Source: a bacterium
GTDB taxonomy: Bacteria; Zhuqueibacterota; Zhuqueibacteria; Residuimicrobiales; Krinioviventaceae
Length of the DNA stretch: 64,000 nt
NCBI GenBank assembly: GCA_963693055.1
Contig: OY843751.1
Location: 800,001 to 864,000 of the forward strand
Reading direction: 5' to 3'
Part shown: positions 33,325-64,000 of the stretch, piece by piece
Layout of the letters: every line of letters begins with the position of its first letter
Numbering within the stretch: the stretch's first letter is position 1
Notes under the pieces: model-generated
Seen by the model: only the letters and a program-made list of their open reading frames with translations
Told to the model about the DNA's origin: nothing
The model's database searches: none
Program-made: the position numbers and the translations under genes

Positions 33325-33361
33325 TGTTCAGGCATAATACAGACTGTTCAGTTGTTAAACA
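33325..33361. promoter_or_regulatory. Tandem TGT-N11-ACA elements (candidate bEBP enhancer)
   Basis: TGTTCAggcatAATACA (33325) and TGTTCAgttgtTAAACA (33345), 20 bp apart, ~150 bp upstream of the sigma54 box. Confidence 0.5.
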
Positions 33362-33390
33362 TATGTTGATGATTATGATTAAAAAACCTT

Positions 33391-33408
33391 AATTACGAAA
33401 AAGTAATT
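33391..33408. promoter_or_regulatory. Palindrome AATTAC-N6-GTAATT (copy 1)
   Basis: AATTACgaaaaaGTAATT; the same motif recurs twice at 35302-35338. Confidence 0.55.
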
Positions 33409-33490
33409 GAGGCATCGTTAATGACTATAAATACATAACTTATGTTTGAATGGTTTGTTGTTTTTTAAAGGGTTATGAGGTGAGGATTTG

Positions 33491-33506
33491 TGGCAAACTA
33501 TTTGCA
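33491..33506 (+). promoter_or_regulatory. Putative sigma54 (-24/-12) promoter
   Basis: TGGCAAACTATTTGCA with exact GG-N10-GC spacing, just upstream of SD GGAGGTG (33534) and ATG 33552. Confidence 0.72.
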
Positions 33507-33551
33507 CATGAACCATAGATGACTATGGAAAATGGAGGTGATTTACAGAAC

Positions 33552-34640
33552 ATGAATAACATCGGAGAGATTGAAGTATACAACCTGACAGATGTGGATT
33601 TTGATCATTTGGATACCATGTCAGTATCCACGCATGGATTGACAGGATTTGAGATGTATTATCCCAAAGTCAGCAAGAATCCTGAAATTAAAAAGATCTA
33701 CGAGTTGATCAAAAAAGTTGCCAAGAGTAATGCATCTGTTTTAATTCAAGGCGAAACCGGTACCGGTAAAGAATTAATAGCCGGTTCCATACAGGCGCAA
33801 AGCCTGCGTGCTAATAAACCTTTTGTCACTGTCAACTGTGCAGCATTGCATGAGAATTTGTTAGAGAGTGAATTGTTTGGTCACGAAAAAGGTGCTTTCA
33901 CCGGTGCTATTTCATCGCATTCCGGCAAGTTTGAGCAAGCAGATGGTGGAACACTTTTTCTGGACGAAATAGGAGATATGCATCCGTCAACACAAGCCAA
34001 GATCCTTAGGGTTTTGCAAGAGCAGACTTTTAATCGTATTGGCAGCAGTAAAATGATCAAGGTGGATGTTCGTATTATTGCGGCTACCAACAAGGACTTG
34101 TGGCAGGATATTGAAGACGGAAAATTCAGAGCTGATCTTTATTATCGTTTAAATGTTGTGCCCATGTATATACCCGCATTGCGTGAAAGACGTGAAGATA
34201 TACCCATGCTTGCGGAATATTTTAGACATAAATTTTCAAATGAAATCAAGAAAAATGTAGGACCTTTTACCGCAGAAGCTATTGATATTCTAAGAGAGCA
34301 TAGTTGGACCGGTAATATCAGAGAATTGCGCAATATTTTAGAACGCGCAGCCCTTGTTGTGCCTGAAGGAAGAGCAATTACTGCAGAGATATTGGGCATG
34401 TCTGGTAAAGATTATTTTGGTTCAGGTGGTATTGAACGCAGACAAGCAGAACGTACCGGTACCAATTTTAAATCGCTGAATCTGGAAGAAATAGAAAAAG
34501 AAGCTATTATTGTTGCGCTGCAACGTACCAGATGGGTACAAAAAGAGGCTGCAGCAATGTTGGGTATTTCACCCAGAGCTTTAAATTATAAAATTTCTCA
34601 ACACAATATAACACATCACGGATGGAGAAAACACAGCTAA
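33552..34640 (+). CDS. Sigma54-interacting activator (AAA+ and Fis HTH) lacking an N-terminal sensory domain
   Basis: GETGTGKE, GAFTGA, LFLDEIG, FRADLYYRL, WTGNIREL, HTH LGISPRALNYK. Only ~40 aa precede the AAA+ core (ORF track start 33519). Confidence 0.93.
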   Translation: MNNIGEIEVYNLTDVDFDHLDTMSVSTHGLTGFEMYYPKVSKNPEIKKIYELIKKVAKSNASVLIQGETGTGKELIAGSIQAQSLRANKPFVTVNCAALHENLLESELFGHEKGAFTGAISSHSGKFEQADGGTLFLDEIGDMHPSTQAKILRVLQEQTFNRIGSSKMIKVDVRIIAATNKDLWQDIEDGKFRADLYYRLNVVPMYIPALRERREDIPMLAEYFRHKFSNEIKKNVGPFTAEAIDILREHSWTGNIRELRNILERAALVVPEGRAITAEILGMSGKDYFGSGGIERRQAERTGTNFKSLNLEEIEKEAIIVALQRTRWVQKEAAAMLGISPRALNYKISQHNITHHGWRKHS

Positions 34641-34673
34641 CGGAAGAAACGGATACGAGAAAATTGAAATTTT

Positions 34674-35288
34674 ATGATCACTAGAAAAAATTTTTTTGTT
34701 ATATATAAACTCATCATTACAATTATATGCTCTTTGGCCTTAATCTCCCCGGTATTGAGTCAGAGTGTTTCTCTGACTGTATCCTGGAACCAAAATTCAG
34801 AAGACGATATTTTCGGTTACAAGGTTTACTGGGGGACGCGTCATCAACAGTATGACCATCACAAATGGGTGTCTGAGAATAATACCACACTCGAAGATTT
34901 GAGAAGTGGATTGCGTTACTATGTTGTGGTAACGGCAGTCGATTACTGGGGTAATGAAAGTGCCTTTTCAGATGAAGTTTCTCAAATCGCCGGTAGTACC
35001 GAGGTGCCCGCGTATCTTGTCTTGGAGACCAATTATCCCAATCCATTCAATCATGATACTGCAATCGAGTTTTCTATTCCCGAGCGGACGAATGTTAATA
35101 TTCATATTTTCAACCGAATTGGGCAATTGGTAAAAGATATGCGAATTGGGCCTTTGGACAGCGGCAGACATGTACGATTTTGGGACGGGTTGGATGACCA
35201 GGGAAACAGGGTATCGTCAGGAATTTATTATTATCAATTACGATCAGGATCGGAATCGATAACAAAAAAAATGTCTCTGGTGCGATAA
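34674..35288 (+). CDS. Small secreted protein: one FN3 domain plus FlgD-Ig/T9SS-type CTD
   Basis: Signal peptide; W.QNSEDDIFGYKVYWG...TAVDYWGNES; NYPNPFN...WDGLD...SSGIYYY. Confidence 0.85.
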   Translation: MITRKNFFVIYKLIITIICSLALISPVLSQSVSLTVSWNQNSEDDIFGYKVYWGTRHQQYDHHKWVSENNTTLEDLRSGLRYYVVVTAVDYWGNESAFSDEVSQIAGSTEVPAYLVLETNYPNPFNHDTAIEFSIPERTNVNIHIFNRIGQLVKDMRIGPLDSGRHVRFWDGLDDQGNRVSSGIYYYQLRSGSESITKKMSLVR

Positions 35289-35301
35289 TGGGAAATGCAG
35301 C

Positions 35302-35338
35302 GATTACGCAGGCGTAATTAAATTACTTTTTTGTAATT
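35302..35338. promoter_or_regulatory. Tandem ATTAC-N6-GTAAT palindromes (copies 2 and 3)
   Basis: gATTACgcaggcGTAATt and AATTACttttttGTAATT, 19 bp apart, ~100 bp upstream of the 1242-aa gene. Confidence 0.55.
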
Positions 35339-35436
35339 AGGTGTTGCAGTGTTTCCGCAAATCCTGAAAAATTTACTACTTTTTTTACATGTTTTCTGGA
35401 TTTTTTTCCAATACTTGGTAATGAGATGAGGTTTTT

Positions 35437-38400
35437 ATGTATATATATATGGGGTATTTCAAGGCTTTATGTTTTGCGGTCCTGCTTTTCATTAGCCCAC
35501 TTTTGGCAATTGACCTGCAATTGAACTGGTACGAAAATACAGAACCTGATCTGGCTGGGTATACCATTTACTTTGGCAACCACAGCCGATTGTACGATCA
35601 AAAGGTTTCTACAGGCCTGGTAAGCAGTTACGTATTGAAGGACCTTGAAGAAAAGGTAGAGTATTATTTTGCAATAACAGCCTTTGATACTGCCGGTAAC
35701 GAGAGCGCTTATTCTGCAGAATCTATGTGTATATTAAATGACACAACCCCCCTCAAGATCGATTCAATAAACGTATTGAGCCTGAATGATTTAGAAGTCG
35801 TTTTTAATAAAAAAATTACTGCGCAAACCGCTCAGCAAATAGAGAATTATTTCATAACGCCGGATATTGATATTCAAAAAGCTGTACTCCAGACCGATGC
35901 GAAAAGTGTTCGACTGGTTACTGGTGAGCATGCTTTTGAGACCACATATCAACTGTCTGTTGATAATATTTCTGACATTGCGCTTCCTGCCAATACATTG
36001 TCTGAAACACAATTTAATTATATGGTTGACGCTCAGCAAATTGATCATATACCGCCGGTTGTTGCATCTGTTGAGCCATTGACAAACAATTCAATACTTG
36101 TCTATTTTGATGAACCTATTAACGCAAACCTGGATAGTACTCAATTTTCTACAAGTCCTGATATTGCGGTGCTGTCATTTGAACAAATATCAGCCAATGT
36201 TATTAAATTGCAGACGGCTCCACATCAACAGAACGTGGTTTATACATTAAATGTGAAAAATGTTTCCGATAATTCAGTGAATGTAAACACCATCCCCGAT
36301 GACAGTCGCTGCAGTTATTCCATTATAGCTGAATCTACAAATGCCCCCATAGTTGAACTGTGGGATGTGCCTGAAAAAGATCATGTGCAGTTGATGTTTA
36401 ATTCTGCTCCTGGAATCTTGGATGAAAACGATTTTGTGATTCCCGGAATAACGATCCATAATGTTTCCCTGGATTCAAGCGGCAGAATGTTGAATCTGTT
36501 TACATCCAATCACAAGGTTGGAGAGATATATAAACTTGAATATATGGGCAATTCTCAATCTATTGTAGAGCCATTTACAATGCACTATGAATATACTACC
36601 CCTGACACTCTGGCGCCTGTTTTACAAAAGATACGATTTTTGAATGATTCGGAAATCTGTTTACATTTTTCCGGCTCGCTTGAAGAAAGCGGTGCACTGG
36701 ATATTCAGAATTATGTTATTGATAATGGTATTAGTGTTTTGAATGCCGAGTTGTCTTTTTACAAGAACATTGTAACGCTTGAAACCACCCCCCATACGGT
36801 GAATTCAGATTATTCAATACAGCTGTACGGAATTGTAGATAATACATACCGTCATAACCGGATTGATTCAACCCGAATTTTTAATTATACTTTTTCAGAT
36901 ACAAAATATCCCCGTATTACAAAGATCGTCCAGATCGATTCGGTAATGATTGATGTTTATTTTAATGATCGACTTGATCCGGTAACTGCACAAGCTAAAT
37001 CTAATTACAGTTATGACGATACAGAGATGCAAATATATGCAGTTCAGCTAAGTAATGATGGTACTATTGTTCGTCTTGAGACGTTGCCACATAAAGAAGG
37101 TAAAATTTATTCGCTGCAAACACAAAATATCTTGTTTTTTGATAACAGCATAATTCCAGCCGGGTACAAGAGTGTTTATCGTTATGAATTTTTTGACAAA
37201 GATGTTACAGGACCGGTAATCCGTACCATTCGCGCCAAAGATGAAGAAAATCTCTATGTGCTGTTTAGTGAAGCCTTGGATAAAACCTCGGCGCAGGATG
37301 TAAGGAATTATGCTATATCCGATGGCATTCAAGTGTTGAGTGCAGCACTGAATGCAGAAAGAGATTTAGTGCATCTGGAGACCAGCTCGCATGACAAAAA
37401 ACAAAACTATACGCTTCAAGTTGAGAACATTTGTGATTCAAGCATGACCATGAATGTTTGTCCCGATGAGCATTCTTTTATTTATTCCATCGATCTTCCC
37501 GATGAACAGCCACCCTACATTAAACAAATTAAGGTGCTAGCATCGGATAAAATTGTAGTATTGTTTAATGAACCGGTAGCAGGTGCGAATGTAACTCAAG
37601 CCAGAAATTACTATATCGATCATGATATAGATGTAACGGATGTCAGTACCTCTTTATTGTCCAATCGTGTTGAGCTTACCACAACATTGATGGAACCCAA
37701 AGTTTATCAATTATATGTAAACAATATTGCAGACAGGTTCGGAAATATTCCAGAGGGTAACCCTTACTTTTATTTCAGTTATAGTGGAATGTCTACCAGT
37801 TTACAGGTTACGAATGTAGAACCTTTAACATCAAGCGAGTTGCTTGTAACATTTTCTCATGATCTGGAATCCTCAAGTGCTGCAAATGTTAACAATTATG
37901 CTATTGATCAGGGTATTCAAATTTTATCCGCCCGAATGGATGAAAATGAAAATCAGGTTGTTTTAACAACGAGCGATCATGTTTTAGAGGCTGAATATTT
38001 GTTGACAGTAGAGAATGTAACGTCAAAACAGGGCAAACGTACAGCGGATAAAGATTACACCCGCTTTCAGTATTATTTTTGTTCCGGTTATTCCGGCAAG
38101 CTTGCAATTCTATCAGTATCTTTGATGACGCCTGAACAGATTGAATTAAAATTTGATCAAAAAGTTAATTGGCAATCTGCTGAAAATATTGCCAATTATA
38201 AAATTGAGCCATTTGTAGAACTCGAGACGGTTACCCTTGCTGATGATGATCAAACGGTTATACTGTCAAGTAATCAGCATTTTCAGGCAATACCATATAC
38301 TCTCAGGGTTTCAGATGTAGTGCCTGTTGATGATTCTATTGAAACGAGTGATAGCTATTATGGTGTTTACCATTATCTTTCACTGCTGGATGTATTGTTG

Positions 38401-39165
38401 CCGGATAATTCAGAGATTGACGTTGAATATGTTCAGGTGGGCAAACCCTATTATACTGATCGTGATTATGTTCTAACAGCAGTCCCCGAAGCACTTGAAG
38501 GCTCAAGAATGATCAAAACTCCGAACGATGACAAGAGTAACGAGGCCCCTGATTATTTACCCATGTCGCTCACTCAAAATGCTGTGATTTATATAGCATA
38601 CGATTCCCGTGTTGAATCAGTACCGCAATGGCTGAATGAAAAGTTTAAAAAAACATCTTTGCCCCTGGGTGTAACGGACCAGGTAGAAAAGCTGGATATC
38701 TGGAGAGGATATTTCAAGTCCGGTGAATTGACACTGGGGGGAAATTCCGCTGAAGGGGCTATCAATGCCAAGAGCATGTACGTAGTATTTGTAGCTGAAC
38801 CCACTCAGGAAGTGGTTGAAGATATATTAAAAGGGGATGATACTGATGGGAACGGTGAAATACCCGAAACATTTGTGCTGTATCAAAATTATCCCAATCC
38901 ATTTAATCCGTCTACAAAAATCCGTTTTGATCTAAACGCAGACCAGTACATAACTTTGCAGGTATTTAATGTATTGGGGCGTAAAGTGAAAACTTTGTAT
39001 GATGCATATGCACCTGCCGGATATTATGAATTAGAATGGCAGGGTGAAAATGAAGCGGATAACAAGGTTGCTGCAGGATTATATTTTTACAGGTTTGAGA
39101 TGCGTACACCAAATGGACAATCAGGTGTACAAACTCTTGTCAAGAAAATGTTGCTTATCCGATAG
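35437..39165 (+). CDS. Large secreted surface protein: FN3, ~9 Ig-like (SbsA/Big_5-type) repeats, unknown domain, FlgD-Ig/T9SS-type CTD
   Basis: Repeats of P.I..V......L.V.F.E.LD..SA...NY.I...V.L.T..H....Y.L.V.NI.D; QNYPNPFNPST CTD. Confidence 0.88.
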   Translation: MYIYMGYFKALCFAVLLFISPLLAIDLQLNWYENTEPDLAGYTIYFGNHSRLYDQKVSTGLVSSYVLKDLEEKVEYYFAITAFDTAGNESAYSAESMCILNDTTPLKIDSINVLSLNDLEVVFNKKITAQTAQQIENYFITPDIDIQKAVLQTDAKSVRLVTGEHAFETTYQLSVDNISDIALPANTLSETQFNYMVDAQQIDHIPPVVASVEPLTNNSILVYFDEPINANLDSTQFSTSPDIAVLSFEQISANVIKLQTAPHQQNVVYTLNVKNVSDNSVNVNTIPDDSRCSYSIIAESTNAPIVELWDVPEKDHVQLMFNSAPGILDENDFVIPGITIHNVSLDSSGRMLNLFTSNHKVGEIYKLEYMGNSQSIVEPFTMHYEYTTPDTLAPVLQKIRFLNDSEICLHFSGSLEESGALDIQNYVIDNGISVLNAELSFYKNIVTLETTPHTVNSDYSIQLYGIVDNTYRHNRIDSTRIFNYTFSDTKYPRITKIVQIDSVMIDVYFNDRLDPVTAQAKSNYSYDDTEMQIYAVQLSNDGTIVRLETLPHKEGKIYSLQTQNILFFDNSIIPAGYKSVYRYEFFDKDVTGPVIRTIRAKDEENLYVLFSEALDKTSAQDVRNYAISDGIQVLSAALNAERDLVHLETSSHDKKQNYTLQVENICDSSMTMNVCPDEHSFIYSIDLPDEQPPYIKQIKVLASDKIVVLFNEPVAGANVTQARNYYIDHDIDVTDVSTSLLSNRVELTTTLMEPKVYQLYVNNIADRFGNIPEGNPYFYFSYSGMSTSLQVTNVEPLTSSELLVTFSHDLESSSAANVNNYAIDQGIQILSARMDENENQVVLTTSDHVLEAEYLLTVENVTSKQGKRTADKDYTRFQYYFCSGYSGKLAILSVSLMTPEQIELKFDQKVNWQSAENIANYKIEPFVELETVTLADDDQTVILSSNQHFQAIPYTLRVSDVVPVDDSIETSDSYYGVYHYLSLLDVLLPDNSEIDVEYVQVGKPYYTDRDYVLTAVPEALEGSRMIKTPNDDKSNEAPDYLPMSLTQNAVIYIAYDSRVESVPQWLNEKFKKTSLPLGVTDQVEKLDIWRGYFKSGELTLGGNSAEGAINAKSMYVVFVAEPTQEVVEDILKGDDTDGNGEIPETFVLYQNYPNPFNPSTKIRFDLNADQYITLQVFNVLGRKVKTLYDAYAPAGYYELEWQGENEADNKVAAGLYFYRFEMRTPNGQSGVQTLVKKMLLIR

Positions 39166-39321
39166 TGGTTTTGGGGGAATTGATTTTCTCAGTTTTACCA
39201 ATAACTGTAAATCAGTCAAGGTTAATGAATTTGGTTGATTAAATTGCTTTGATTGCCTATATTTATATTCTAAACTCTGGAGAATATAGTTATTTTTAAA
39301 GCAATCCTCAAATATTCAAGT

Positions 39322-41247
39322 TTGATTCTTGTTATTCCAATGTGGCTTGGGGCTTTTGAATCTGTTCGTGAAATCCAAAATCAAATGTCAGATTTTGTTC
39401 GTCCTGATGAATTTGGTTCGTACCAAAAATCAACTTTTACGGAATCTGATTCGACCCAGGAAAAGGTTGAATTCAGTTTGTTTGGAGAGCAGTTTTTTGA
39501 TCGCATTCTTTCTCAAAATACGATTGCAACAGGTGGCGTAATTACCCCCGAGTACCCATTGGGCCCTGGAGATATTTTAAATATCTATCTGGGTGACAAA
39601 GCTCAACAGGAATTCAAGGTACAGGTCAGTGTTGATGGTAAAGTATATATACCTACTGTTGGTGTGTTTGATGTTTATGGGCAGACGGTAAAAGATTTTC
39701 ACATCAGCCTGGACGAGCGTTTGAAGCGGCTTTACAATAATTATATTGTTGATGTAATGCTATTGGCGCCAAAGCAGGTTCGGATCAGTGTGGTTGGTGA
39801 GGTTAGGTCTCCGGGGAATTATACACTGAATGCATTGAATACAGCACTGGATGCAATCTTGAATGCCGGTGGTCCCACAGAATTGGGATCATTACGAAAT
39901 ATTCAACTGTTCCGTAACGACAGTTTGCTGGCATATATTGATTTGTATGAATACTTGTTGGAACAAAAAAGTCCACCCAATATATATATGCAAAACGGAG
40001 ATCGGTTGTTTGTACCCGTCCGTAAAGCAGTAGTCCAGGTATCCGGTGAGGTATATCGGGAAAAAATTTATGAGCTTAACGCTCAAGACCCAGAATCGAT
40101 TGATCAAATGATAGAGTTAGCTGGTGGCGCAACTGACATGGCTCTCGTCGATCGTATTGAACTGAGCCGAATGGGTTTAAATGGGGAACGAAAAATTTAT
40201 TATTTTGATAACAGCAATCCCGATCAGAATAAAAATATCAATTGGCGTCTTGAAAATCATGACAGGATCCATGTCTACTCTGTAAAAGATAAATTTAAAC
40301 CGCATATTCTAACAATATTGGGCGAGATCAAAAACCCCGGAATATATGAATATGAAGAAAATATGCGGGTCAGTGGTCTGGTGATGAAAGCCGGAGGTGT
40401 CTTGCGCAGCAGTTACCTGCTAAAAGCCAGTCTTGCTAAAGTTGATCCCCAGATGCCTTATCATGTTCGTGAAGTGAATCTTGAAACTGTTTTAAATAAT
40501 CCTGGTTCTGATGAGAACTTTATACTTGAACCAGATGATCAGGTTTTTATTCGTAAAATTCCGGACTGGCAGGTTGGGCCTTTGGTTGAAATCAAAGGAG
40601 AGGTAATGTTCCCGGGTTTTTATCCAATCGTCAAAGGGTCAACCAGTTTAAGCGAGGTTGTTAAACAGGCCGGCGGTTTAAAGCATGAAGCCAATGTTAA
40701 TGACGCCACACTCACACGACCTAATGCGGTATCTGTTAAAGATAAAGAATTTTTGCGTTTGCAAAGTATGAGCAAGAGTGAAATGAGCAAGAACGAGTAC
40801 CAGTATTATGTTATGAAACAAAATGCCGCAGACGTGAATTCAATTGTGGTAGATTTTTACAAGTTGCTTGTTAAAGATGATACAAAAGAAGATGTAATAT
40901 TACAAGACGGCGATATTATTAATATACCCAAAGCACCCAAGGTGGTTACTGTAATTGGAAGGGTGGCGAAAAATGGGGGTATTGTCTATAAAGAGACAGC
41001 GGGTATAGAGTATTATATTGAACAGGCGGGCGGGTATACCTGGGATGCAGATGCAGGTGATACAAAGGTTATCAAAGTTTCTGGTGAAATTCTTGACAGT
41101 CATGATGTGCATCATTTTTCACCGGGAGACAGAATCTGGGTACCGCGTAAACCTGACAGGAATTACTGGGAAATTTTCAGAGATATTATGCTGGTAGCAG
41201 GGCAAGTTGCTACGGTTTATCTTGTAGTAAAACAGGCTACTGATTAA
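39322..41247 (+). CDS. Polysaccharide export protein with multiple SLBB domains (Wza/KpsD-like)
   Basis: YPLGPGDILNI Poly_export motif; repeated V.GEV..PG.Y / AGG SLBB domains; C-terminal helix. True start may be upstream. Confidence 0.9.
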   Translation: MILVIPMWLGAFESVREIQNQMSDFVRPDEFGSYQKSTFTESDSTQEKVEFSLFGEQFFDRILSQNTIATGGVITPEYPLGPGDILNIYLGDKAQQEFKVQVSVDGKVYIPTVGVFDVYGQTVKDFHISLDERLKRLYNNYIVDVMLLAPKQVRISVVGEVRSPGNYTLNALNTALDAILNAGGPTELGSLRNIQLFRNDSLLAYIDLYEYLLEQKSPPNIYMQNGDRLFVPVRKAVVQVSGEVYREKIYELNAQDPESIDQMIELAGGATDMALVDRIELSRMGLNGERKIYYFDNSNPDQNKNINWRLENHDRIHVYSVKDKFKPHILTILGEIKNPGIYEYEENMRVSGLVMKAGGVLRSSYLLKASLAKVDPQMPYHVREVNLETVLNNPGSDENFILEPDDQVFIRKIPDWQVGPLVEIKGEVMFPGFYPIVKGSTSLSEVVKQAGGLKHEANVNDATLTRPNAVSVKDKEFLRLQSMSKSEMSKNEYQYYVMKQNAADVNSIVVDFYKLLVKDDTKEDVILQDGDIINIPKAPKVVTVIGRVAKNGGIVYKETAGIEYYIEQAGGYTWDADAGDTKVIKVSGEILDSHDVHHFSPGDRIWVPRKPDRNYWEIFRDIMLVAGQVATVYLVVKQATD

Positions 41248-41262
41248 TTTTAGCGGAGACAA

Positions 41263-42513: not shown

Positions 42514-42535
42514 TCTGATTATTTCAGGAGTATTT

Positions 42536-43288: not shown

Positions 43289-43300
43289 GAGAAGGAACTG

Positions 43301-46025: not shown

Positions 46026-46032
46026 GCAGTAT

Positions 46033-48968: not shown

Positions 48969-48969
48969 G

Positions 48970-49686: not shown

Positions 49687-49692
49687 TAAAGA

Positions 49693-54211: not shown

Positions 54212-57200
54212 TTACAAGAAATATGAATTCAATTTATTTGTATTTTTATTTATTGTCGTTTTCTGGTATCCTGCCTCATTAGTGTTTGGAAACAGTATCG
54301 TTTCTGTACTTGAACAAACACCGCAATATACCATATTAGAGTGGACCGTTCCGCAAATTGAATTTAAGACGGTGCAAACGGAAAAGGGCGAGTTTGTTGT
54401 GCCGGCTTACGATGATCTGGCAGAATCCAGAGTACCCGGATTTCCCATTTTGCCTGTAAATAATCTCTTGTTGGAAAATTTGGATACTCAACGCATAACC
54501 GTTCTGGATACGGTCTATTCAGATAAATCTACCCATACCATTTGCCCTGCACCTTTATATCAGTATCCTGATTATGACTCTCAACCTTTTATTTCTTATA
54601 AAATGGGACCCGTTTATCAAAAAGCTGCTTTTTATCCCGCATCTTTTATATCGATTTCTCATGCCTGGCAGCGAGACAATTTATTGACCCGTTTTGCAAT
54701 AAATCCGGTTTTGTATAACCCTGTACAAAACCAGATACGTGTTTTGAGATATATCAAGATCAGGATTAATGCGGCTGTTGAATTAGATTTAAAAAATCAT
54801 ACAATCCGGTCTAAATCGGGTAATGCCAAACTTGCCAGATCTAATTCCGTGCAGGTGTCTGCTAATGATTCATGGTGGGAACCCTATAATAGTGATGAGT
54901 TGATAAAGATCGAAACGCCAACCGCTGGTATGTATAAAATTACGGGTCAGAATCTGCGTGACCAGGGTGTTCAGTTGTCAATGATCGATCCAAGCACTAT
55001 TAAGATGTTGAATAATGGAATTGAACAGCCTTGCCAGGTTTTAGATGGTGGAGACGGGGAATTTAATGAAAATGATTTGTTGGTTTTTTATGCGAACAGA
55101 TTGAGTGGAATTACCGATTTTTATCACTCCTGGGCTGTCAGCAATGTGTACTGGCTGGTTTGGGGTGGTAATGCCGGATTAAGATATTCAACACTGGCTA
55201 ATGATAATGATCCCGGTTTGTCAAATAATTATTTTTTATCTACTATTCATATTGAAAAAGACCTGGAATACTATCATGGCGATACCAATGAAGCCATACA
55301 GGAAACCAACATTACAGATGGTGAGGGCTGGGTTTGGACACGGGCATTATATCATAATTCCAGACAAACAATAGAGTTTGATTTACCGGGACTGTTCTCT
55401 GGTACCACCCTAAATGATTCTCTGAAAATTCGATTAAGGTTCAGAGGAATGACCATTGATTCGGCAGCAAACGATCATCATCTATTATTATCAGTCAACA
55501 ATAATAGTATGGGTGAGGGGTATTTTAATAACCGCCAGGAGTGGTTACCACAATTTTCAGTTCCTGTATCAAACCTGCTGGAATCTGGTAATCAATTATT
55601 AATAGAATCTGTTGCAACCAATGCCGAAATATCACAGGTATATTTTGACTGGCTTGAGGTTGATTATCCCCGTGCCTTGCAGGTTGAAAATGGTCAGATC
55701 TTGATCGATTCATTAGATACTGTTGAACATGCTCTGCAGATCAGTGGTTTACAGTCTGATTCTGTTTTTGTTTTTAATCTACAGGAACAAACAGAACTGG
55801 TGAATAAAAGTGTTCCAACGGGCAGGTTGTTAAATATTAAAGTACAGTCAGCCGCTATTGGTGATGGAAATTACAGCCGGTTCTTGATTGAAAATGAATT
55901 GATATATGAAGGTACTCGTGGAATTGGTATGGTGGTTATGAACCAGCATACCGGTAATGTAGAGTTGAAGCGGACTTTTGATACATGGGGCTCGTCAGCA
56001 GACGCAGACAGCCTGGTTGCAGTAGTAAGCAGAATTGCTGATGGCCGTATTGTATTATGCGCAATCAAAGATGAGGGCTCAAATCAACTTGGTGAAGAGC
56101 AGTATAATGCATTGGAAACACTTGGCAGCAATCAGATCCAAAATTTGGCCACAAGGGGTTCATGGGCTTTGATCGGCAGCAAGGGAGCGGAGTCGGGTAC
56201 TGCAATAGAAATTTTGACCGCTTCGGGAGAAGGCCCTGCACACATTGATGATTATATCAATTTTTCTCAAGGAGATGGATTTATTTGTCGTTTTGGAGTA
56301 CCCCAAAACCAAACAGGCCCTTTTGTTGTATTTGATATTATGGGATTAAAACAACCGCTATTACAGAAATTTCAGCTTGGCGAATTGTCTCTTGTACAGA
56401 ATGGTGCGGATTATATTATTGTCACCCATCCCGATTTTATGGAAACCGCCAATCAATTGGCAGCTCATCGGCAGACGCAAAATGGTTTCAGGACTTTTGT
56501 TGCCAATGTGAATGATATTTATAATGAATTTAATTATGGAATTAAAGATCCTGTTGCTGTTAAGCGGTTCCTGGAACTTGCATATAACAACTGGCAAAAG
56601 CCTGCACCCGAATATGTGGTAATGTTGGGTGATGCCAGCTGGGACCCGTTAAAGAATTCAGGCAATGATAGTAAAATCGATTTTGTGCCGGTTTACGGAA
56701 ATCCTGTCAGTGATGTTTGGTATGTTTGCATGGATGGCGAGGATGATATTGTTCCGGATATGCATATCGGTCGCATTCCTGTTGAAACAGAGTCACAGGC
56801 ACAAAACTATCTTGACAAGATGATGGAATACGAATCTACTCAGCCGGCATCCTGGAAAAAGAACTTTTTGTTTATCAGTGGCGGATTTGATCAGTATGAA
56901 CAATTGGTGTTTGGTCAGCAGTCTCAGACATTGATCGATGATTTTGTTACGGGTCCCCCGATAGGTGGCAATGCTATACATATCGGTAAAGAATCTACCG
57001 GGCTGGCAGAGGGAGAACATCGTGATGATCTGTTGAAGGCATTTGACGATGGCATTGTCTGGGCTAATTTTATTGGCCATGCCGGCAGCAGTACCTGGGA
57101 CCTTATGTTTCATAATCCTGATATTGATTTGCTGAATAATGGCCCCAAGTATCCTTTTATTACAAGTATGACTTGCCATACCGGGCGCTTTGCTGAACCG

Positions 57201-59945
57201 AATCAGGATAGCTTTGGTGAATATTTTTTGAGGGTTGTAGACAAGGGTGCCGTTGCATTCTGGGGTACCGCGGGTTGGGGATATACGTATGAAGACTATA
57301 TGTTTCTGCGTCAAATGTATCCCATTATGCTGCAGAATTCTGTTCAAGAAATTGGGAAAGGCTTGAGCCAGGCAAGGGCCGGTCTTTGGAGTACGCTGGG
57401 TGAAGGGTTGCATGTTAGGAATATAATTCTGCAATATGTTTTACTTGGAGATCCCGCGCTGGATCTTGCACTACCTGATAAACCCGATCTGGCAATTGAT
57501 GCTTCTGATGTTCGTGTTTATCCTGCTGTGCCCAGTGAGGCAGATTCGCTGGCAGAGATTCATGTGACTGTAAACAATTACGGACTTTTACCGCAAGACA
57601 GTGTAACTGTATTGGTTACAGCAGAACTACAAAACGGAAATAATCATAAAGTGGAATATACCAGGAGACTGGCTCCTGTTTACCTTTCTGATTCTGTGAG
57701 TGTAGATTGGAAATTAAAAAATATGACCGGATTGGTCAATGTTACAGCATCGGCTGATCCCTATGAAATGATTGATGAAGACGATGAAACAAACAATACA
57801 GCATCTCAACCGGTAACGGTTATTTCGAATGTAATACGCCTGTTATATCCACAAAATCAGACCGTATGTTCCGGTGATGATATGGTCCTCAGTATTCGAA
57901 ATCCCCAGGTTTCAAGCTTGGAGAATTATATGTTCGAATTTCAGCTGGATACATCAGGTACGTTCAATAGTGGATATCTAAAAACCTATACTGCATCTCC
58001 CGGTATTTTGGCAACTGAATGGGTGGTTGGCGATCTGCCTCCTGGAATTTATTTCTGGCGATGCCGAAATACCAATGAAACCGCGGGGCCGGTTTGGATT
58101 GAAGGCAGCTTTTTAGCAACGAATTCTAATAACTTTGGTTGGGGACAATCTCAAACCAAACAATTCTCTGTCAACAATCTGGATGATGCGCAAATTGTTG
58201 ACGACAGTATTGAACTGTATCGCGATGTGCTTACACTGAACGTTGAATCTGCAGGTATTGTGGATGGGAATTATGCCAGGTTGCTGGTGAATTCAAACTC
58301 GGTATTGGAAACGTCACGTGGAATCAATCTGGTCGCCCTGAGTCCTCAAGATGGCAGTGTATTGTTTCAAAAGTGCTTTGATACTTATGCAGATGGCAAT
58401 GCTCCTGATTCAATGGCATTGGTAATTAGCGAGTTCGCTGATAGTACCTGGGTATTGGCCGCTATCAAAGATGAAGGTAGCAACCAGTTGAATGAGACAG
58501 CATATACCGCCCTTGAATCCATTGGTAGTCAATATTGCAGGGATTTGCAATACAGAGATTCATGGGCCATTATTGGCAAAAAGGGAGCTCCTGTTGGTTC
58601 CGTTTCTGAAGAAATAAAAAAATCCGGTGAAGGATTTGTTTCATTGTTAGAGAATATTGGAATCTATAAAATGAATGGAACGGTGTCAACTCCACTTGTA
58701 GGCCCCAGTACAAATTGGCAAAAATGCAATGTAAAGACAAATCTGCCAGAGCAGACATCTATATTGTTTAATGTTCTTGGTATTCAGACTAATGGTGAGC
58801 AAGACACTTTGATCCGCCAAACCAACGCCAAAGAAATTGATCTGGCCGGTATCAATGGGGAGGTATATCCTTTTATAAAAATAGTGGGAACATTGAAAAC
58901 AAATGATTTTCATGTTACTCCGGCAATTCGTCAATGGATAATTAGTTTTGAACCTTCACCTGACCTTGCTGTGTCTCAGGAAACATTCCATGTAGATAAT
59001 GACACGATACTGATTGGAAGTAACGTTGAAATGCAGGCTCAAATTTATAATCTTGGCAAAGGCTCTATTATTGGTGATACTCTGAAACTTGCATTTTTTC
59101 ATATTGATACAGAGGGAAACGAGAATTTAATTACCCAAAAGAATTACGCTCAATCTATATTCGCCGATAGTATTATAACTGTTTCTCATGCCTGGAATTC
59201 TGAAGGCCACGCGGGAACACATAAACTCAAGTTGTACATAGATCCGGATAATCAATTTGTTGAATTGGATAAAGCCAATAATATTGTGACCACATCTGTT
59301 TATGTTCTGGCAGATACCATTAAACCAGAAATAGCAGTAACGATAGATGGTAGAGAGATCATGTATGGAGATTGGGTGGCATCGCAGCCGACCATAATGG
59401 TTGATGTTACAGATAACCGTCAGAATACATCTGGTATTGCTGATACAAGCAGAGTAACCGTTTTCCTCAATGATCAACGAGTCAGTTATGCCAGTGGTCA
59501 GCTGCAGATGTTAGAAACTGATGGAACCAATACAGCCATCAAACTTGAATATGAACCGGAACTGGAAGACGGTGAACATTATTTAACAGTAATGACTTCT
59601 GATCCCAGTAATAATTCAAGTATCTATCAAACCAGTTTTAATGTGGTTAAAGAACTGGCAATACGCAAAGCAGTCAACTATCCTAATCCCTTTGAGGCCG
59701 AGACTCATTTTACTTTTGAATTATCACAACCAGCCAATGTGCGAGTCAAGATCTATACGGTTGCTGGTAGATTGATAAACGATTTGGATTATGGCTGGCA
59801 GGGAGCGGGTTACAATATGCTTCCCTGGGATGGTACGGATGCTGATGGAGATGTACCTGCAAATGGTGTATATATTTACAAGATTGTTGCCTCAGAAGGT
59901 GACGAAAATGCAGAGGCAATCAGTAAATGTATACTCATGAAATGA
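54183..59945 (+). CDS. C25 family (gingipain/PorU-like) cysteine peptidase with two ILEI domains, CARDB-like domains and FlgD-Ig/T9SS CTD
   Basis: Propeptide-like N-terminus; ADYIIVT, LGDAS, HIGRIP; catalytic NFIGHAG and MTCHTG; LLGDP; two RG...FDT...AIKDEGS...R.SWA.IG.KG domains; D..NN; NYPNPF...WDG.D. ATG 54183 gives a signal peptide. Confidence 0.88.
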   Translation: MKRIQNLNVNYKKYEFNLFVFLFIVVFWYPASLVFGNSIVSVLEQTPQYTILEWTVPQIEFKTVQTEKGEFVVPAYDDLAESRVPGFPILPVNNLLLENLDTQRITVLDTVYSDKSTHTICPAPLYQYPDYDSQPFISYKMGPVYQKAAFYPASFISISHAWQRDNLLTRFAINPVLYNPVQNQIRVLRYIKIRINAAVELDLKNHTIRSKSGNAKLARSNSVQVSANDSWWEPYNSDELIKIETPTAGMYKITGQNLRDQGVQLSMIDPSTIKMLNNGIEQPCQVLDGGDGEFNENDLLVFYANRLSGITDFYHSWAVSNVYWLVWGGNAGLRYSTLANDNDPGLSNNYFLSTIHIEKDLEYYHGDTNEAIQETNITDGEGWVWTRALYHNSRQTIEFDLPGLFSGTTLNDSLKIRLRFRGMTIDSAANDHHLLLSVNNNSMGEGYFNNRQEWLPQFSVPVSNLLESGNQLLIESVATNAEISQVYFDWLEVDYPRALQVENGQILIDSLDTVEHALQISGLQSDSVFVFNLQEQTELVNKSVPTGRLLNIKVQSAAIGDGNYSRFLIENELIYEGTRGIGMVVMNQHTGNVELKRTFDTWGSSADADSLVAVVSRIADGRIVLCAIKDEGSNQLGEEQYNALETLGSNQIQNLATRGSWALIGSKGAESGTAIEILTASGEGPAHIDDYINFSQGDGFICRFGVPQNQTGPFVVFDIMGLKQPLLQKFQLGELSLVQNGADYIIVTHPDFMETANQLAAHRQTQNGFRTFVANVNDIYNEFNYGIKDPVAVKRFLELAYNNWQKPAPEYVVMLGDASWDPLKNSGNDSKIDFVPVYGNPVSDVWYVCMDGEDDIVPDMHIGRIPVETESQAQNYLDKMMEYESTQPASWKKNFLFISGGFDQYEQLVFGQQSQTLIDDFVTGPPIGGNAIHIGKESTGLAEGEHRDDLLKAFDDGIVWANFIGHAGSSTWDLMFHNPDIDLLNNGPKYPFITSMTCHTGRFAEPNQDSFGEYFLRVVDKGAVAFWGTAGWGYTYEDYMFLRQMYPIMLQNSVQEIGKGLSQARAGLWSTLGEGLHVRNIILQYVLLGDPALDLALPDKPDLAIDASDVRVYPAVPSEADSLAEIHVTVNNYGLLPQDSVTVLVTAELQNGNNHKVEYTRRLAPVYLSDSVSVDWKLKNMTGLVNVTASADPYEMIDEDDETNNTASQPVTVISNVIRLLYPQNQTVCSGDDMVLSIRNPQVSSLENYMFEFQLDTSGTFNSGYLKTYTASPGILATEWVVGDLPPGIYFWRCRNTNETAGPVWIEGSFLATNSNNFGWGQSQTKQFSVNNLDDAQIVDDSIELYRDVLTLNVESAGIVDGNYARLLVNSNSVLETSRGINLVALSPQDGSVLFQKCFDTYADGNAPDSMALVISEFADSTWVLAAIKDEGSNQLNETAYTALESIGSQYCRDLQYRDSWAIIGKKGAPVGSVSEEIKKSGEGFVSLLENIGIYKMNGTVSTPLVGPSTNWQKCNVKTNLPEQTSILFNVLGIQTNGEQDTLIRQTNAKEIDLAGINGEVYPFIKIVGTLKTNDFHVTPAIRQWIISFEPSPDLAVSQETFHVDNDTILIGSNVEMQAQIYNLGKGSIIGDTLKLAFFHIDTEGNENLITQKNYAQSIFADSIITVSHAWNSEGHAGTHKLKLYIDPDNQFVELDKANNIVTTSVYVLADTIKPEIAVTIDGREIMYGDWVASQPTIMVDVTDNRQNTSGIADTSRVTVFLNDQRVSYASGQLQMLETDGTNTAIKLEYEPELEDGEHYLTVMTSDPSNNSSIYQTSFNVVKELAIRKAVNYPNPFEAETHFTFELSQPANVRVKIYTVAGRLINDLDYGWQGAGYNMLPWDGTDADGDVPANGVYIYKIVASEGDENAEAISKCILMK

Positions 59946-60027
59946 TTTCTCATGTTTTCACGTCTTTTTGTTCTATAAGATAATATTGGTTTTGAGATTA
60001 GCCTAAAAATATGTAAATTCTTGTTTT

Positions 60028-61275
60028 ATGTGCAGAGATTATAATAATATGTCTTTAATTGGTGTTTTTTCAAAAAGTTTTATTGCCGAGGGTATAGTTG
60101 TTTTTGTTGGATTCATTAACAGTATAATTATTACTCGTGCACTGGGTGTAGAAGGTAGAGGCCAGTACTCTTTGGCAATGACAATCATTACTATTTCCGC
60201 CCTGGTATTGGGAGATGGTCTTTGCCGTAATAATACTTTTCTTACCAGCAAAGATAAAAAGCTGGTTTCTCCACTTTTTGGCAATTTATTATTATACTTT
60301 TTTTTTCTGGCTATATTAATGGCTGCAGCAGGTGTTTGGGGACTCCCGATTTTTCATATCGCTGTACCGGGTTTGTCAAACAAGCTGATTTGGTTGTCTG
60401 TTGCGGTTGTTCCGTTTTATATTACTATCCGCAGTATGAATTCAATATTTTTGGGTTTACAGGATTATAATCGTTATAATTTTTTTCTGGCATTGCCGTT
60501 TATATTCTATCTGCTGATAAATATCTGTATATATTTTTTTGCTACAGTAACACCTGAACTGGTTTTGACTGGTTATAATGCTTCCATGATATTGGTATTT
60601 GTTTTGATCCTTTATCTTTTTATTGCAAAATATAAAGCATCAAAACCAGATACCGCATTATTAAAAAAGAGTTTAAATTATTCAACCAAAGCGGCTGTTT
60701 CTCATATTTCTTTGTTTTTGTTATTCCGGGTTGATATTATTCTGATTAATTTATTGATAGGAGTAAAGGGCGCAGGATTGTACTCTATATCTGTCATGAT
60801 AGCTGAGTTGATGCAAAAACTTGCCAATACATCTGGAAATGTGATTTTTCCCAAGTTAACCGGTGAGAATACAAAGCAAAAACAGCAGTTAACAATGCGG
60901 GTATTTGCATTTGTTATGATTGTCAGTGTTGTTGTGGCTGTATTTATTTTGCTTTGGGGTAACGAATTTATTGTTTTGTTGTTTAAAAAAGATTTTTCAG
61001 ATTCCGCTTTGCCTTTGTACTGGCTTCTGCCAGGTGCAGTTATTATGACTGGTGCCAAAGTTATAAAATTCTCGTTATGGGCACAGGGATTCCCCTGGAT
61101 AACCATAACTGCTCCGGTTTCTGCTTTGATTTTAAACATTACATTGAATCTGATACTCATTCCCCGTTTGGGTATTGTTGGTGCTGCAATTGCAACCAGT
61201 TGTTCGTTTATTGTTTATAGTATTATGATTGTGGGTTATTATTTTACCCGATTTTACCGGAAAGCTCTAGTATGA
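60028..61275 (+). CDS. Wzx-type flippase 3
   Basis: TRALGVEGRGQY, RVDIIL, GLYS, LIPRLGIVGAAIAT. Confidence 0.88.
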   Translation: MCRDYNNMSLIGVFSKSFIAEGIVVFVGFINSIIITRALGVEGRGQYSLAMTIITISALVLGDGLCRNNTFLTSKDKKLVSPLFGNLLLYFFFLAILMAAAGVWGLPIFHIAVPGLSNKLIWLSVAVVPFYITIRSMNSIFLGLQDYNRYNFFLALPFIFYLLINICIYFFATVTPELVLTGYNASMILVFVLILYLFIAKYKASKPDTALLKKSLNYSTKAAVSHISLFLLFRVDIILINLLIGVKGAGLYSISVMIAELMQKLANTSGNVIFPKLTGENTKQKQQLTMRVFAFVMIVSVVVAVFILLWGNEFIVLLFKKDFSDSALPLYWLLPGAVIMTGAKVIKFSLWAQGFPWITITAPVSALILNITLNLILIPRLGIVGAAIATSCSFIVYSIMIVGYYFTRFYRKALV

Positions 61276-62492
61276 GAATTTTATATATTACACAATACTT
61301 TCCCCCAGAGGTAGGAGCTACTCAAACCCGTGCTTTGGAAATGACAACCAATCTGGTAAAACAGGGACACCAGGTAACGGTATTGACTGAATTCCCAAAT
61401 CATCCCGTTGGCATTATTCCACCGGAATATAAAGGTAAATGGGTAACTGTTGAAAAGTGGCGGGGTATGGATGTGATCCGTACCTGGGTTTATGCACGTC
61501 AGGAAAAGAACTTTAAAACCCGTATGGGATTTTATCTTAGTTTTATGGCAACATCTGCAATTGCGGGTTCATACATGTTGCCCGAGTATGATATTGTGTA
61601 TACAACCTCACCACCTTTTTTTGTAGGCTTGACTGGTTATTGGTTGAGTCGGTTAAAAAATGCAAAGTTTATTTTTGAAGTGCGTGATCTTTGGCCAGAT
61701 TCCGCGGTACAGTTGGGTGAATTGACCAATCGTACTTTAATACGTTGGGCTGAAAAGTTGGAGACTTTATATTATAATAAAGCAGAACGTATTATAACGG
61801 TTACACAGGGGATTAAGAACAGTCTGACTGAACGAGGTTATGGAGAAAAAACCGAGCTGGTACTTAATGGTACCAATACCGATCTTTTTAAAAATATGGG
61901 ACCCGGAATGAAAAATAAACTGGGCCTTGAGAATAAATTTATTGTGTTATATGCGGGAATTATTGGTATAGCTCAGGGACTGGAACAAATTTGCGATGTT
62001 GCTGAACAATTGCAAGATCAACCGGATATTGCATTTGTTTTGATTGGTGAGGGACCTGTTAAGCATAAAATTGAAAAAATAAAACAGGAAAAATATCTAA
62101 AAAATCTTATATTAATGGATCAGGTCCCCAGAGACGATATACCGCTATATATTTCAATGGCAGATTGCTGCCTGGTTCCCCTGAAAAAGAATGATTTGTT
62201 TAAAGGCGCTTTGCCATCCAAGATGTTTGATTATATGGCATGTGAAAAACCGGTTATACTCAGTGTGGATGGTGAAGCACGGACAGTACTTGAACGCTCA
62301 GGAGCTGGTATATTTGTAGAGCCTGAGAATCGAAAGGATATGATCTCTGCCATCCTTTCTCTGAAATCCGGTTCTGTTGATGGAAAGTCAATGGGACTAT
62401 TGGGAAGAGTGTTTGTTGAAAAAGGGTATTCAAGAAAACAGCAGGCACTCGAGTTGTTGAGTATCCTTGAGAAAATCGTCCGAAATCAATAG
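61272..62492 (+). CDS. GT4 glycosyltransferase (WbuB-like)
   Basis: TQYFPPEVGA, FPNHP, TTSPP, EVRDLWP, YAGIIGIAQG, PSKMFDYMA. Confidence 0.92.
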   Translation: MRILYITQYFPPEVGATQTRALEMTTNLVKQGHQVTVLTEFPNHPVGIIPPEYKGKWVTVEKWRGMDVIRTWVYARQEKNFKTRMGFYLSFMATSAIAGSYMLPEYDIVYTTSPPFFVGLTGYWLSRLKNAKFIFEVRDLWPDSAVQLGELTNRTLIRWAEKLETLYYNKAERIITVTQGIKNSLTERGYGEKTELVLNGTNTDLFKNMGPGMKNKLGLENKFIVLYAGIIGIAQGLEQICDVAEQLQDQPDIAFVLIGEGPVKHKIEKIKQEKYLKNLILMDQVPRDDIPLYISMADCCLVPLKKNDLFKGALPSKMFDYMACEKPVILSVDGEARTVLERSGAGIFVEPENRKDMISAILSLKSGSVDGKSMGLLGRVFVEKGYSRKQQALELLSILEKIVRNQ

Positions 62493-62508
62493 GATCAGGA
62501 GATTTCAA

Positions 62509-63606
62509 ATGCGTTATTTTTTGTATGGTACAGTTGCTTTAGAAGCGTTTTTAATCGCACTTTTCATTGTGCCTATTATACGTAAATTGGCCATTTCATG
62601 GAATGTAGTAGATAAACCGGGTGAACGTAAAATTCATTATACCCCCAAAGCATTGATGGGTGGTGTTGGTATTTTTACCGCGTTTTATGTTACGGTTTTG
62701 GTAAATGTAATTGGTTTTTATCTTTTGTATCATACATCATTTGTTCAGTCACACTTGCAAACCATTGTGAGAGTTGCCCCTATGCTGGACCAGGTTGTAC
62801 CCAAACTTGTTGTAATACTGGGTGGCGGGGCTGTTATTCACATGTTGGGTATTTTGGATGATATCCTCAAAGAGAAATTGACCTATAAACCCAAATTTAT
62901 TGTACAGATTGTTGTAGCGCTTGTTGTTTCTCTGATGGGAGTGCGAACTCACTTTATGCCTGGTACTGCTTTGGATGTCTTTGTTACAACTATATGGATT
63001 GTGGGTGTTACAAACAGCTTTAATCTGCTGGATAATATGGATGGTTTGACAGCCGGAGTTTCGGTTATTGCGGCCTTGTTTTTATTTGTTATTGCTGTTT
63101 TGCAGGGACAGATATTTTTTGCCTTTATGCTTGCAGCGTTAATAGGTGCCTGTTTGGGATTTTTACCCTATAATTTTAATCCCGCAAAATTATTTATGGG
63201 TGACAGTGGAAGCCTGTTTTTAGGGTATATTTTTGCAACCTTGACGGTAACAGGCTCATATGTTGTACCTACAAGCCAGACCCATATACCTATCATGATC
63301 CCGATTCTGATACTTTCTATTCCGCTATATGATACTTTTTCGGTAATGTTTATAAGGTGGCGCGAAAAACGGCCGCTATTTCTGGGAGACAAGCGCCATT
63401 TCTCCCACCGATTGCATGCACTTGGCATGAGCCAACGTCAAGCGGTAACCTTTATTTATCTTGTTGGTTTATGTGTAGGTGGTGTTGCTACACTTTTACC
63501 GTATATCTCTTTAATCGGAAATGTTGTTGTTCTGGTTCAGATAATTATTATATATATAATAATAACCTTTTTAATAGTTATAGGAAAACAAAATCAAAAT
63601 TCTTGA
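62509..63606 (+). CDS. wecA: MraY/WecA family undecaprenyl-phosphate GlcNAc-1-P transferase
   Basis: RKIH, MGG, GILDD, NSFNLLDNMDGL, FMGDSGS, HFSHRL. ATG 62509 has SD AGGAG. Confidence 0.88.
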   Translation: MRYFLYGTVALEAFLIALFIVPIIRKLAISWNVVDKPGERKIHYTPKALMGGVGIFTAFYVTVLVNVIGFYLLYHTSFVQSHLQTIVRVAPMLDQVVPKLVVILGGGAVIHMLGILDDILKEKLTYKPKFIVQIVVALVVSLMGVRTHFMPGTALDVFVTTIWIVGVTNSFNLLDNMDGLTAGVSVIAALFLFVIAVLQGQIFFAFMLAALIGACLGFLPYNFNPAKLFMGDSGSLFLGYIFATLTVTGSYVVPTSQTHIPIMIPILILSIPLYDTFSVMFIRWREKRPLFLGDKRHFSHRLHALGMSQRQAVTFIYLVGLCVGGVATLLPYISLIGNVVVLVQIIIIYIIITFLIVIGKQNQNS

Positions 63607-63630
63607 TGTAATATTTCTCAGGAGGAAAAT

Positions 63631-64000
63631 TTGAGAGCGTTAATAACTGGCGGTGCAGGCTTTATTGGTTCGCACCTTGCAGAAAAATTGTTGGAGAGAG
63701 GGGACAGTGTTTGTGTTATAGATGATCTGTCTACAGGTCGATTGGAAAATGTTAACCATTTACGAGACAATCCGAATTTTAGCCTGGTAATAGAGACGAT
63801 TCTAAACGAAACGGTAATGGACCGCCTGGTAAGTGAATGCGATGTAATCTATCATTTGGCGGCAGCTGTGGGTGTAGAGCTGATTGTTAAAAGCCCGGTA
63901 GAAACAATCGAAAGAAATATTCTGGGTACAGATGTTGTACTCCGGTTATCAAATCGATATTTACGTAAAGTATTGATCACTTCTACTTCAGAGATATATG
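63631..64000 (+). CDS. NAD-dependent sugar-nucleotide epimerase/dehydratase (partial; not in ORF track)
   Basis: TTG start after SD GGAGG: MRALITGGAGFIGSHL...DDLSTG...YHLAAAVGV...TSTSEIY. Confidence 0.9.
   Translation, partial: MRALITGGAGFIGSHLAEKLLERGDSVCVIDDLSTGRLENVNHLRDNPNFSLVIETILNETVMDRLVSECDVIYHLAAAVGVELIVKSPVETIERNILGTDVVLRLSNRYLRKVLITSTSEIY

Follow-up and report, generated by a model that had tools for sequence, protein, structure and literature searches.

We analysed a 64,000-nucleotide stretch of a bacterial genome (contig OY843751.1 of assembly GCA_963693055.1, positions 800,001 to 864,000; hereafter the window) and, within it, a locus at window positions 33325..64000 in which a cysteine peptidase of family C25 is encoded among polysaccharide genes. 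Judged by its sequence, the peptidase is a member of a separate PorU-like clade, here called class A, and not the housekeeping PorU. PorU removes the C-terminal domains (CTDs) of type IX secretion system (T9SS) cargo and attaches anionic lipopolysaccharide (A-LPS) brought by PorZ (PMC8545088). We favour, with confidence evenly poised, the reading that the locus makes a surface glycan of the Wzx/Wza/Wzi type and that this second PorU-like C25 enzyme acts as a sortase specific for that glycan.

The C25 peptidase and its lectin-like domains

54183..59945, + strand: class A C25 peptidase, 1920 amino acids

The enzyme consists of a propeptide, PorU-like N-terminal domains, a first ILEI domain (ILEI-1), the catalytic domain, a CARDB domain, ILEI-2, a second CARDB domain and a PorU-type CTD. 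Its C25 domain scored 286 bits in Pfam (cut-off 23), and Propeptide_C25, both ILEI, both CARDB and the CTD were recognised. A preliminary description of this DNA had called the peptidase catalytically intact, and in sequence it is: His966 and Cys998 (numbered from 54183) align with those of PorU, and all 57 class A domains compared retain the pair. The 29-nucleotide overlap with the upstream family 4 glycosyltransferase (GT4) gene, also proposed there, holds for the ATG at 54183, whereas the public gene call is seven codons longer (1927 amino acids).

The host genome (G000; closed, 6.5 Mb, 39% GC, completeness 100%) has six C25 genes. Two are true PorU genes, both outside the window (875 and 881 bits with a cut-off of 420); two more are PorU-like, each with a PorV-like gene after it, and define classes B and C, class C lying near SprA; the sixth encodes a gingipain-like cargo protein. 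The window enzyme reached 374.7 bits with the NCBIfam model for PorU (NF033707, cut-off 420) and 400.8 bits, its best score, with that for PorU2 (NF052324, cut-off 450), and since it lies below both cut-offs we assigned it to neither family. The gingipain-like cargo C25 scored 118 and 49 bits, respectively.

In a careful tree of 33 rows with a midpoint root, class A formed one group (100/100) and joined classes B and C (94/93), apart from a PorU group made up of KSB1 and Bacteroidota PorU (98/94). This tree omits the gingipain-like cargo C25 and a Runella C25, both of them long branches. A 99-row tree made by a quick method agrees with it and largely follows families. RgpB, Kgp, P. gingivalis PorU and Bacteroidota PorU2 stand outside both trees, and the comparison with them is by PDB and NCBIfam searches only. 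True PorU also occurs as a tandem duplication, 91% identical, at G000:C1:6251525-6259890, and other genomes also have such pairs.

A model of residues 235-1215 (981 residues; predicted local distance difference test score, pLDDT, 89) had PorU (6ZA2) as its best structural match over its whole length. Taken alone, the catalytic domain has its best superposition on gingipains (Z 40.8); the PorU crystal, judged by the title of its entry, is in a latent state, and this may be the reason. Among 214 CTDs, that of the enzyme is nearest the PorU CTDs. Gingipain-type cargo would carry the CTD of ordinary cargo and lack PorU-like N-terminal domains; the window enzyme has neither trait, and its N-terminal domains, CTD and whole-model match bear out the earlier view that it is PorU-like rather than gingipain-like. 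The same features speak to a quite improbable alternative, in which the enzyme is a glycan-bound secreted protease, serving nutrition or matrix remodelling and co-regulated with an ordinary capsule locus, and the likeness to exosortase systems is incidental. Lectin domains are common on hydrolases, C25 includes the degradative gingipains, and the enzyme falls below both sortase cut-offs, all of which would suit a protease. However, the PorU-like N-terminal domains, the C-terminal Ig domain, the PorU-type CTD, the grouping with two PorV-adjacent classes and a position that is fixed across families, where the glycosyltransferase block ends, argue against it.

ILEI-1, the one of the two domains whose fold was modelled, matches the stem lectin of POMGnT1 (Z 22, root-mean-square deviation 1.6-1.7). 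POMGnT1 binds beta-linked GlcNAc through Arg129, Asp179 and Arg207 (PMC9802357; two of the three residues are also given in PMC9437275). Placed on the aligned ILEI motifs by spacings of 50 and 78 residues, this triad corresponds to R579/D630/R658 in ILEI-1 and R1379/D1430/R1458 in ILEI-2. The three positions are kept in 77, 77 and 75 of 82 orthologue rows for ILEI-1 (4-5 rows being gapped) and in 81, 79 and 80 of 81 rows for ILEI-2. By the fold and residues that mark an ILEI/POMGnT1-stem lectin, the domains are predicted to bind sugar. Neither class B nor class C nor PorU has ILEI. Within class A, both ILEI and any glycan gene within two genes of the C25 gene are absent from four members (G123, G133, G136 and G047), with G047 on a 7-kb contig and with G136 and G047 placed in class A by best match and not by the tree.

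Layout and conservation of the locus

Protein domains were assigned to the 19 open reading frames (ORFs) of the locus with Pfam and NCBIfam. All 19 lie on the + strand in the order given by the preliminary description, whose account of about 30 kb of co-oriented genes, running from a sigma54 site and activator through CTD proteins into glycan genes, agrees with these assignments.

33491..33506, + strand: sigma54 -24/-12 promoter element
33519..34640, + strand: sigma54 enhancer-binding activator, AAA and HTH_8 domains, no recognisable sensor domain
34674..35288, + strand: FN3 and type A CTD protein, 204 amino acids, invariant candidate cargo
35437..39165, + strand: FN3, Big_5-like Ig repeats, accessory domain and type A CTD, 1242 amino acids, optional candidate cargo
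39322..41247, + strand: Wza-type polysaccharide export protein, Poly_export and SLBB
41263..42513, + strand: Wzz/GNVR polysaccharide co-polymerase, without kinase domain
42536..43288, + strand: hexapeptide N-acetyltransferase, best PDB match QdtC
43301..44371, + strand: UDP-sugar 2-epimerase of WbpI type, closest to UDP-2,3-diacetamido-glucuronic acid 2-epimerase
44358..46025, + strand: Wzi-family outer-membrane protein
46033..54211, + strand: variable glycan cassette with two Wzx, a 238-amino-acid ORF, a GT-C-like membrane protein, a GT2 and two GT4
60028..63606, + strand: Wzx (third flippase), GT4 and WecA-like initiating transferase
63631..64000, + strand: NAD-dependent epimerase/dehydratase, start only

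From Wza to the C25 gene, neighbouring genes touch or overlap (intergenic distances of -38 to +22 bases). Gaps of 148, 156 and 82 bases occur elsewhere in the locus, so a single transcript across 30 kb remains unproven. The 148- and 156-base gaps are predicted to fold more stably than shuffled sequence (z -2.1 and -2.8), and a scan of window 33000-50000 for sigma70 promoters and terminators gave no more than the shuffle level. The glycan genes end just beyond the window, and a DUF92 gene and enolase come next. The DUF92 protein (L001:4994-6514) has a weakly cytidylyltransferase-like N-terminal half, and its gene is often the next one after the locus in the order. Upstream of the locus, on the - strand at window 29198-30547, lies a polysaccharide deacetylase gene whose product has a Cys/His-rich N-terminal segment and a membrane helix.

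The linkage of the C25 gene to glycan genes, which the preliminary description had left to be checked in relatives, is widespread. Named relatives of the gene are labelled candidate division KSB1, and class A was matched in 93 of 133 genomes of the phylum (E 1e-90), where its inheritance is near-single-copy and tracks families. Among the 61 genomes whose class A flanks were examined, 51 have a glycan gene within two genes of the C25 gene, and three of the ten negatives have no upstream DNA. Glycan genes were absent next to eight class C and two true PorU loci, so the linkage is not a general property of C25 genes; class B loci did have them. In 22 of 24 same-contig cases (from 87 genomes tabulated with both genes), the activator lies upstream of class A on the same strand and within 45 kb. 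At E 1e-90 for class A and 1e-115 for the activator, neither was found in the 24 genomes of families f18-f24; a looser search of five of them gave only weaker matches, to the catalytic domain or the tail. A Chlorobi-labelled homologue (its cluster labelled Thermochlorobacteriaceae) lies among GT9, Wzy-like, methyltransferase and GT4 genes, the one locus yielded by a metagenome scan; of 20 clusters of distant homologues, one had an organism name.

The activator matches AAA and HTH_8 and no receiver, GAF or PAS domain, and together with the site at 33491-33506 this agrees with the earlier call of a sigma54 promoter and a sensor-less activator. Its start is more likely at 33552 than at 33519, as the latter stands just 13 bases beyond the -12 element, and since the gene lies under its own sigma54 promoter it is probably autoregulatory. 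Of 30 orthologous loci, one with 40 upstream bases was dropped; the other 29 have 276 upstream bases or more, and in 21 of them a similar site precedes the activator. Close matches to the activator, 60-81% identical outside the genus, occur in 103 of the 133 genomes (E 1e-115), in single copy in all but two. The idea that many CTD genes form one large sigma54 regulon was rejected, with sites before 4 of 148 CTD genes versus 16 of 2271 others (p 0.03). A third exopolysaccharide (EPS) locus, with Wzc-like, AsnB-like, PglC-like and DegT genes (G000:C1:4522130-4550112), has a sigma54 site of its own and lacks a C25 gene.

Of 30 close loci, 29 have the FN3-CTD gene as the next one 3' of the activator, and the 30th has 55 bases downstream. 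Of 20 further genomes, 15 have a cargo-like gene after the activator. The gene for the 1242-amino-acid protein is absent between FN3-CTD and Wza in six loci. Residues near the C-terminus of this protein match a glycoside hydrolase family 2 accessory domain weakly (6HPD, E 3e-4), and the ESM Atlas leads for the domain all stayed below 0.9. On a lattice-forming fold, as expected of the S-layer that the preliminary description had proposed, the observations are a Big_5 match in Pfam for this protein and a single-sequence model of its first part (pLDDT 35) too poor for use. The FN3 subtype of both candidate cargo proteins was found in only three proteins of the genome (E 1e-4); the third (G000:C1:2059519-2060823) heads the class B locus. 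On sequence grounds, this common subtype could be a recognition or assembly tag.

Class B, with its PorV-like gene, is a second glycan-linked C25 class (G000:C1:4294942-4307401 and G000:C1:2057027-2073143; L004, L206). Its front half, 2.2 Mb away in the host genome, comprises genes for a sigma54 response regulator, an FN3 protein, a CTD protein, Wza, a co-polymerase, an XrtA-type ATPase and a kinase, and a flippase-like gene; homologues of the later ones are joined to class B in G003, G010, G029 and G040.

The ends of the window locus are fixed and its middle is variable, the content of the cassette differing between relatives. Its three flippases belong to the Polysacc_synt family, and its glycosyltransferases are one GT2 and three GT4. 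The hexapeptide N-acetyltransferase (68-76% identical across families) would fill a WbpD-like role. The 2-epimerase scored 390 bits with UDP-2,3-diacetamido-glucuronic acid 2-epimerase versus 342 and at most 176 for UDP-GlcNAc 2-epimerase or CapG entries. The 427-amino-acid protein previously named a GT-C has no Pfam match, although its ESM Atlas features lie near PMT_2/GT39 proteins (0.98-0.99), and the 238-amino-acid ORF has no Pfam or NCBIfam match. The WecA said to follow the C25 gene is a Glycos_transf_4 protein but only WecA-like (TIGR02380, 101.7 bits versus a cut-off of 326). In 36 of the 61 relatives, a WecA-like gene lies immediately upstream of the class A gene; it is missing there in the host genome and its genus mate (window 53006-54211), and the downstream copy remains.

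Proposed mechanism and its alternatives

Gene order, residues, fold and phylogeny were observed, and we infer export, binding, cleavage and ligation. The sigma54 promoter and the co-encoded activator would turn the locus on, and the FN3-CTD protein, the Ig-repeat CTD protein and the enzyme would be exported by SprA/PorV machinery encoded elsewhere. The enzyme would keep its PorU-type tail and remain on the surface; the CTDs of PorU and PorZ are likewise retained in P. gingivalis (PMC11285876). The two ILEI domains would bind the glycan of the locus, the job that PorZ has for A-LPS in Porphyromonas, and by this analogy the enzyme itself may carry PorZ's glycan-delivery function. The His/Cys site would then remove the CTD of the cargo and couple the C-terminus so exposed to an amine of the glycan. 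Any preference for the two co-encoded proteins would stem from their joint expression or the common FN3 domain and not from a special CTD.

As the preliminary description had anticipated, the genome has a T9SS, with SprA, PorZ and 22 PorV-family genes over the cut-off in addition to the two PorU genes. Since all of these sit outside the window, and no complete acceptor pathway was found, its term 'self-contained' for the locus is wrong.

Several observations weigh against a glycan-specific sortase. None of 32 PorV-family matches falls in the window. Of the ring and motor components GldK, GldL, GldM and GldN, the one searched for in the host genome, GldK, was not found over its cut-off (best 104 bits versus 350), so the export machine is only partly identified. 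True PorU is over the cut-off in 128 of the 133 genomes and could do all the anchoring. The CTDs of both candidate cargo proteins are ordinary among the roughly 212 CTD proteins of the genome, and a special cargo CTD class was rejected, as they form no separate class. Five genomes that are 94-100% complete (G129, G130, G131, G134 and G137) keep the activator and one or both cargo genes with PorU as the only C25 match, and G046 has an intact ILEI with no adjoining glycan gene. Finally, the genomes are related and not independent, so counts of genomes overstate the number of events. The earlier proposal, in which the enzyme would attach the co-regulated CTD proteins to the glycan, stands in part: the order of activator, cargo and C25 genes is conserved, but exclusivity of the cargo is weakened by the ordinary CTDs and the five PorU-only genomes. 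As a side observation, 22 PorV-family genes and about 212 CTD proteins, with no GldK over the cut-off, make up a T9SS rich in attachment parts, in which the ring and motor went unrecognised.

The acceptor sugar weighs on the same side. Transpeptidation would need an amine on the glycan, whose source in P. gingivalis is the Wbp/Vim pathway, and the acceptor there needs WbpA/B/D/E plus VimA/VimE (PMC7468200). A complete pathway of this kind was not found in the host genome. Loci of other families also carry a Gfo oxidoreductase and a QdtB/WbpE-type aminotransferase, with close matches in 18 of 36 and 25 of 36 genomes of the order, respectively; the Gfo protein is called WbpB-like from position and Pfam, a structure search having given no clear WbpB match. 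For these WbpB-like and WbpE-like genes, neither the host genome, for all its completeness, nor its genus mate has a close match. VimA-like matches are weak and far from the locus, and a VimE-like gene occurs in one (G085) of the loci searched. Elsewhere in the host genome, flippase-like, sulfotransferase-like, VimA/FemAB-like acyltransferase and VimE-like deacetylase genes stand in a row (G000:C1:2754044-2758817); some of these labels rest in part on motifs that we take to be diagnostic, and the row is a candidate source of an amino-acylated acceptor sugar.

In an alternative reading, the enzyme is a maturase, clipping the CTDs or pro-segments of FN3/Ig proteins for release or self-assembly in a glycan layer that its ILEI domains merely hold it in, with no covalent link between protein and glycan. 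We consider this unlikely. In G136, the activator, the FN3-CTD and Ig-CTD genes and a C25 gene without ILEI are contiguous in the absence of glycan genes, and P. gingivalis ligates only a subset of its cleaved cargo (PMC11285876); the incomplete amine-sugar pathway and the superposition of the isolated catalytic domain on gingipains point the same way. However, the latter may come from the latent PorU crystal, the linkage of C25 to glycan genes is at least as tight as its linkage to cargo, and it persists where the activator has moved away (G116 and G127, in which the C25 gene stays with the glycan genes). Cargo, in turn, persists without the enzyme.

A further possibility, decidedly unlikely in our view, is that the glycan of the locus is the general anchor of the phylum, equivalent to A-LPS, that class A is an accessory enzyme attaching many of the roughly 200 CTD proteins, and that the two neighbouring CTD genes are merely co-regulated. 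The number and ordinariness of the CTDs and the near-single-copy, family-tracking inheritance of class A are consistent with this, as is the finding that cleavage by PorU is independent of sequence (PMC4804311). Against it, PorZ and true PorU are already in the genome, and 40 of 133 genomes, among them every one of the 24 in families f18-f24, gave no class A match at E 1e-90. Wza and Wzi have established roles in capsule-type export, and their presence suggests such export and not ligation to lipid A-core.

Relation to known systems

We consider it an even call that the window enzyme resembles PorU in its working; in arrangement the locus resembles exosortase/EPS loci, and the enzyme belongs to neither kind. 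It has in common with PorU (6ZA2; NF033707) the C25 fold, the His/Cys dyad, the N-terminal domains, the Ig domain and the type of CTD. In contrast to PorU, which has 1156 residues, it has about 1920 with two ILEI lectin-like and two CARDB domains, falls in a clade apart from KSB1 and Bacteroidota PorU, and is encoded in a glycan locus, true PorU being elsewhere. PorU2 is its best-scoring family, and class A is sister to the PorV-adjacent classes B and C; unlike PorU2/PorV2 (NF052325), it lies under the cut-off and has no PorV-family neighbour, and classes B and C have no ILEI. We take the adjacency of PorU2 and PorV2 from the names of the models; such a pairing was seen here for classes B and C. 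The stem of POMGnT1 and FAM3 (ILEI) have the same fold and Arg-Asp-Arg residues, here fused twice into a bacterial cysteine peptidase as a predicted lectin.

Exosortase genes sit in EPS loci controlled by a sigma54 activator (PMC1569441). Like these PEP-CTERM/exosortase (EpsH/XrtA)-PrsR loci, the window locus combines a sorting enzyme, a sigma54 activator, Wza with a co-polymerase and a variable cassette. In contrast to them, the enzyme is a secreted C25 peptidase and not a membrane exosortase (no exosortase model of NCBIfam or Pfam matched any of the 19 proteins of the locus), the signal is a T9SS CTD, the activator lacks the receiver domain of PrsR (TIGR02915, 320 bits versus a cut-off of 503), and the host genome shows no large sigma54 regulon. 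With the Wbp/Vim pathway of P. gingivalis and of T. forsythia, the locus has in common a WbpD-like acetyltransferase and a WbpI-like epimerase, whereas it lacks VimA, and WbpB-like and WbpE-like partners were not found in the host genome. We found no description of a lectin-bearing C25 sortase in a glycan locus in the open-access literature, supplements not included, and the available excerpts of PMC12618676 and PMC12419801 hold none of a C25 gene in such an arrangement.

From a biological perspective, the anchoring chemistry of the T9SS is known from a few oral Bacteroidota, and T9SS genes were already suspected in other phyla of the Fibrobacterota-Chlorobiota-Bacteroidota (FCB) group (PMC11285876). 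The wider question is the role of the many PorU paralogues in uncultured FCB phyla and the attachment partner of their cargo. For this question, the locus names an enzyme, a glycan, two candidate substrates and a lectin module; new here are the split of C25 enzymes into four classes with controls, a conserved lectin triad with its joint absence with glycan genes, and limits on cargo exclusivity. We suggest, tentatively and with more doubt than confidence, that several T9SS anchoring systems work side by side in KSB1 and neighbouring FCB lineages, each with a C25 sortase paralogue and a glycan locus of its own and with FN3-tagged cargo. In such systems class A, with its built-in lectins, would select its acceptor without PorZ and build a covalent protein-polysaccharide coat, a T9SS counterpart of exosortase/EPS systems. 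If this is true, a sortase able to choose the polysaccharide acceptor itself would widen the T9SS model and provide a tractable parallel to those systems, and it might offer a tool for protein-glycan ligation.

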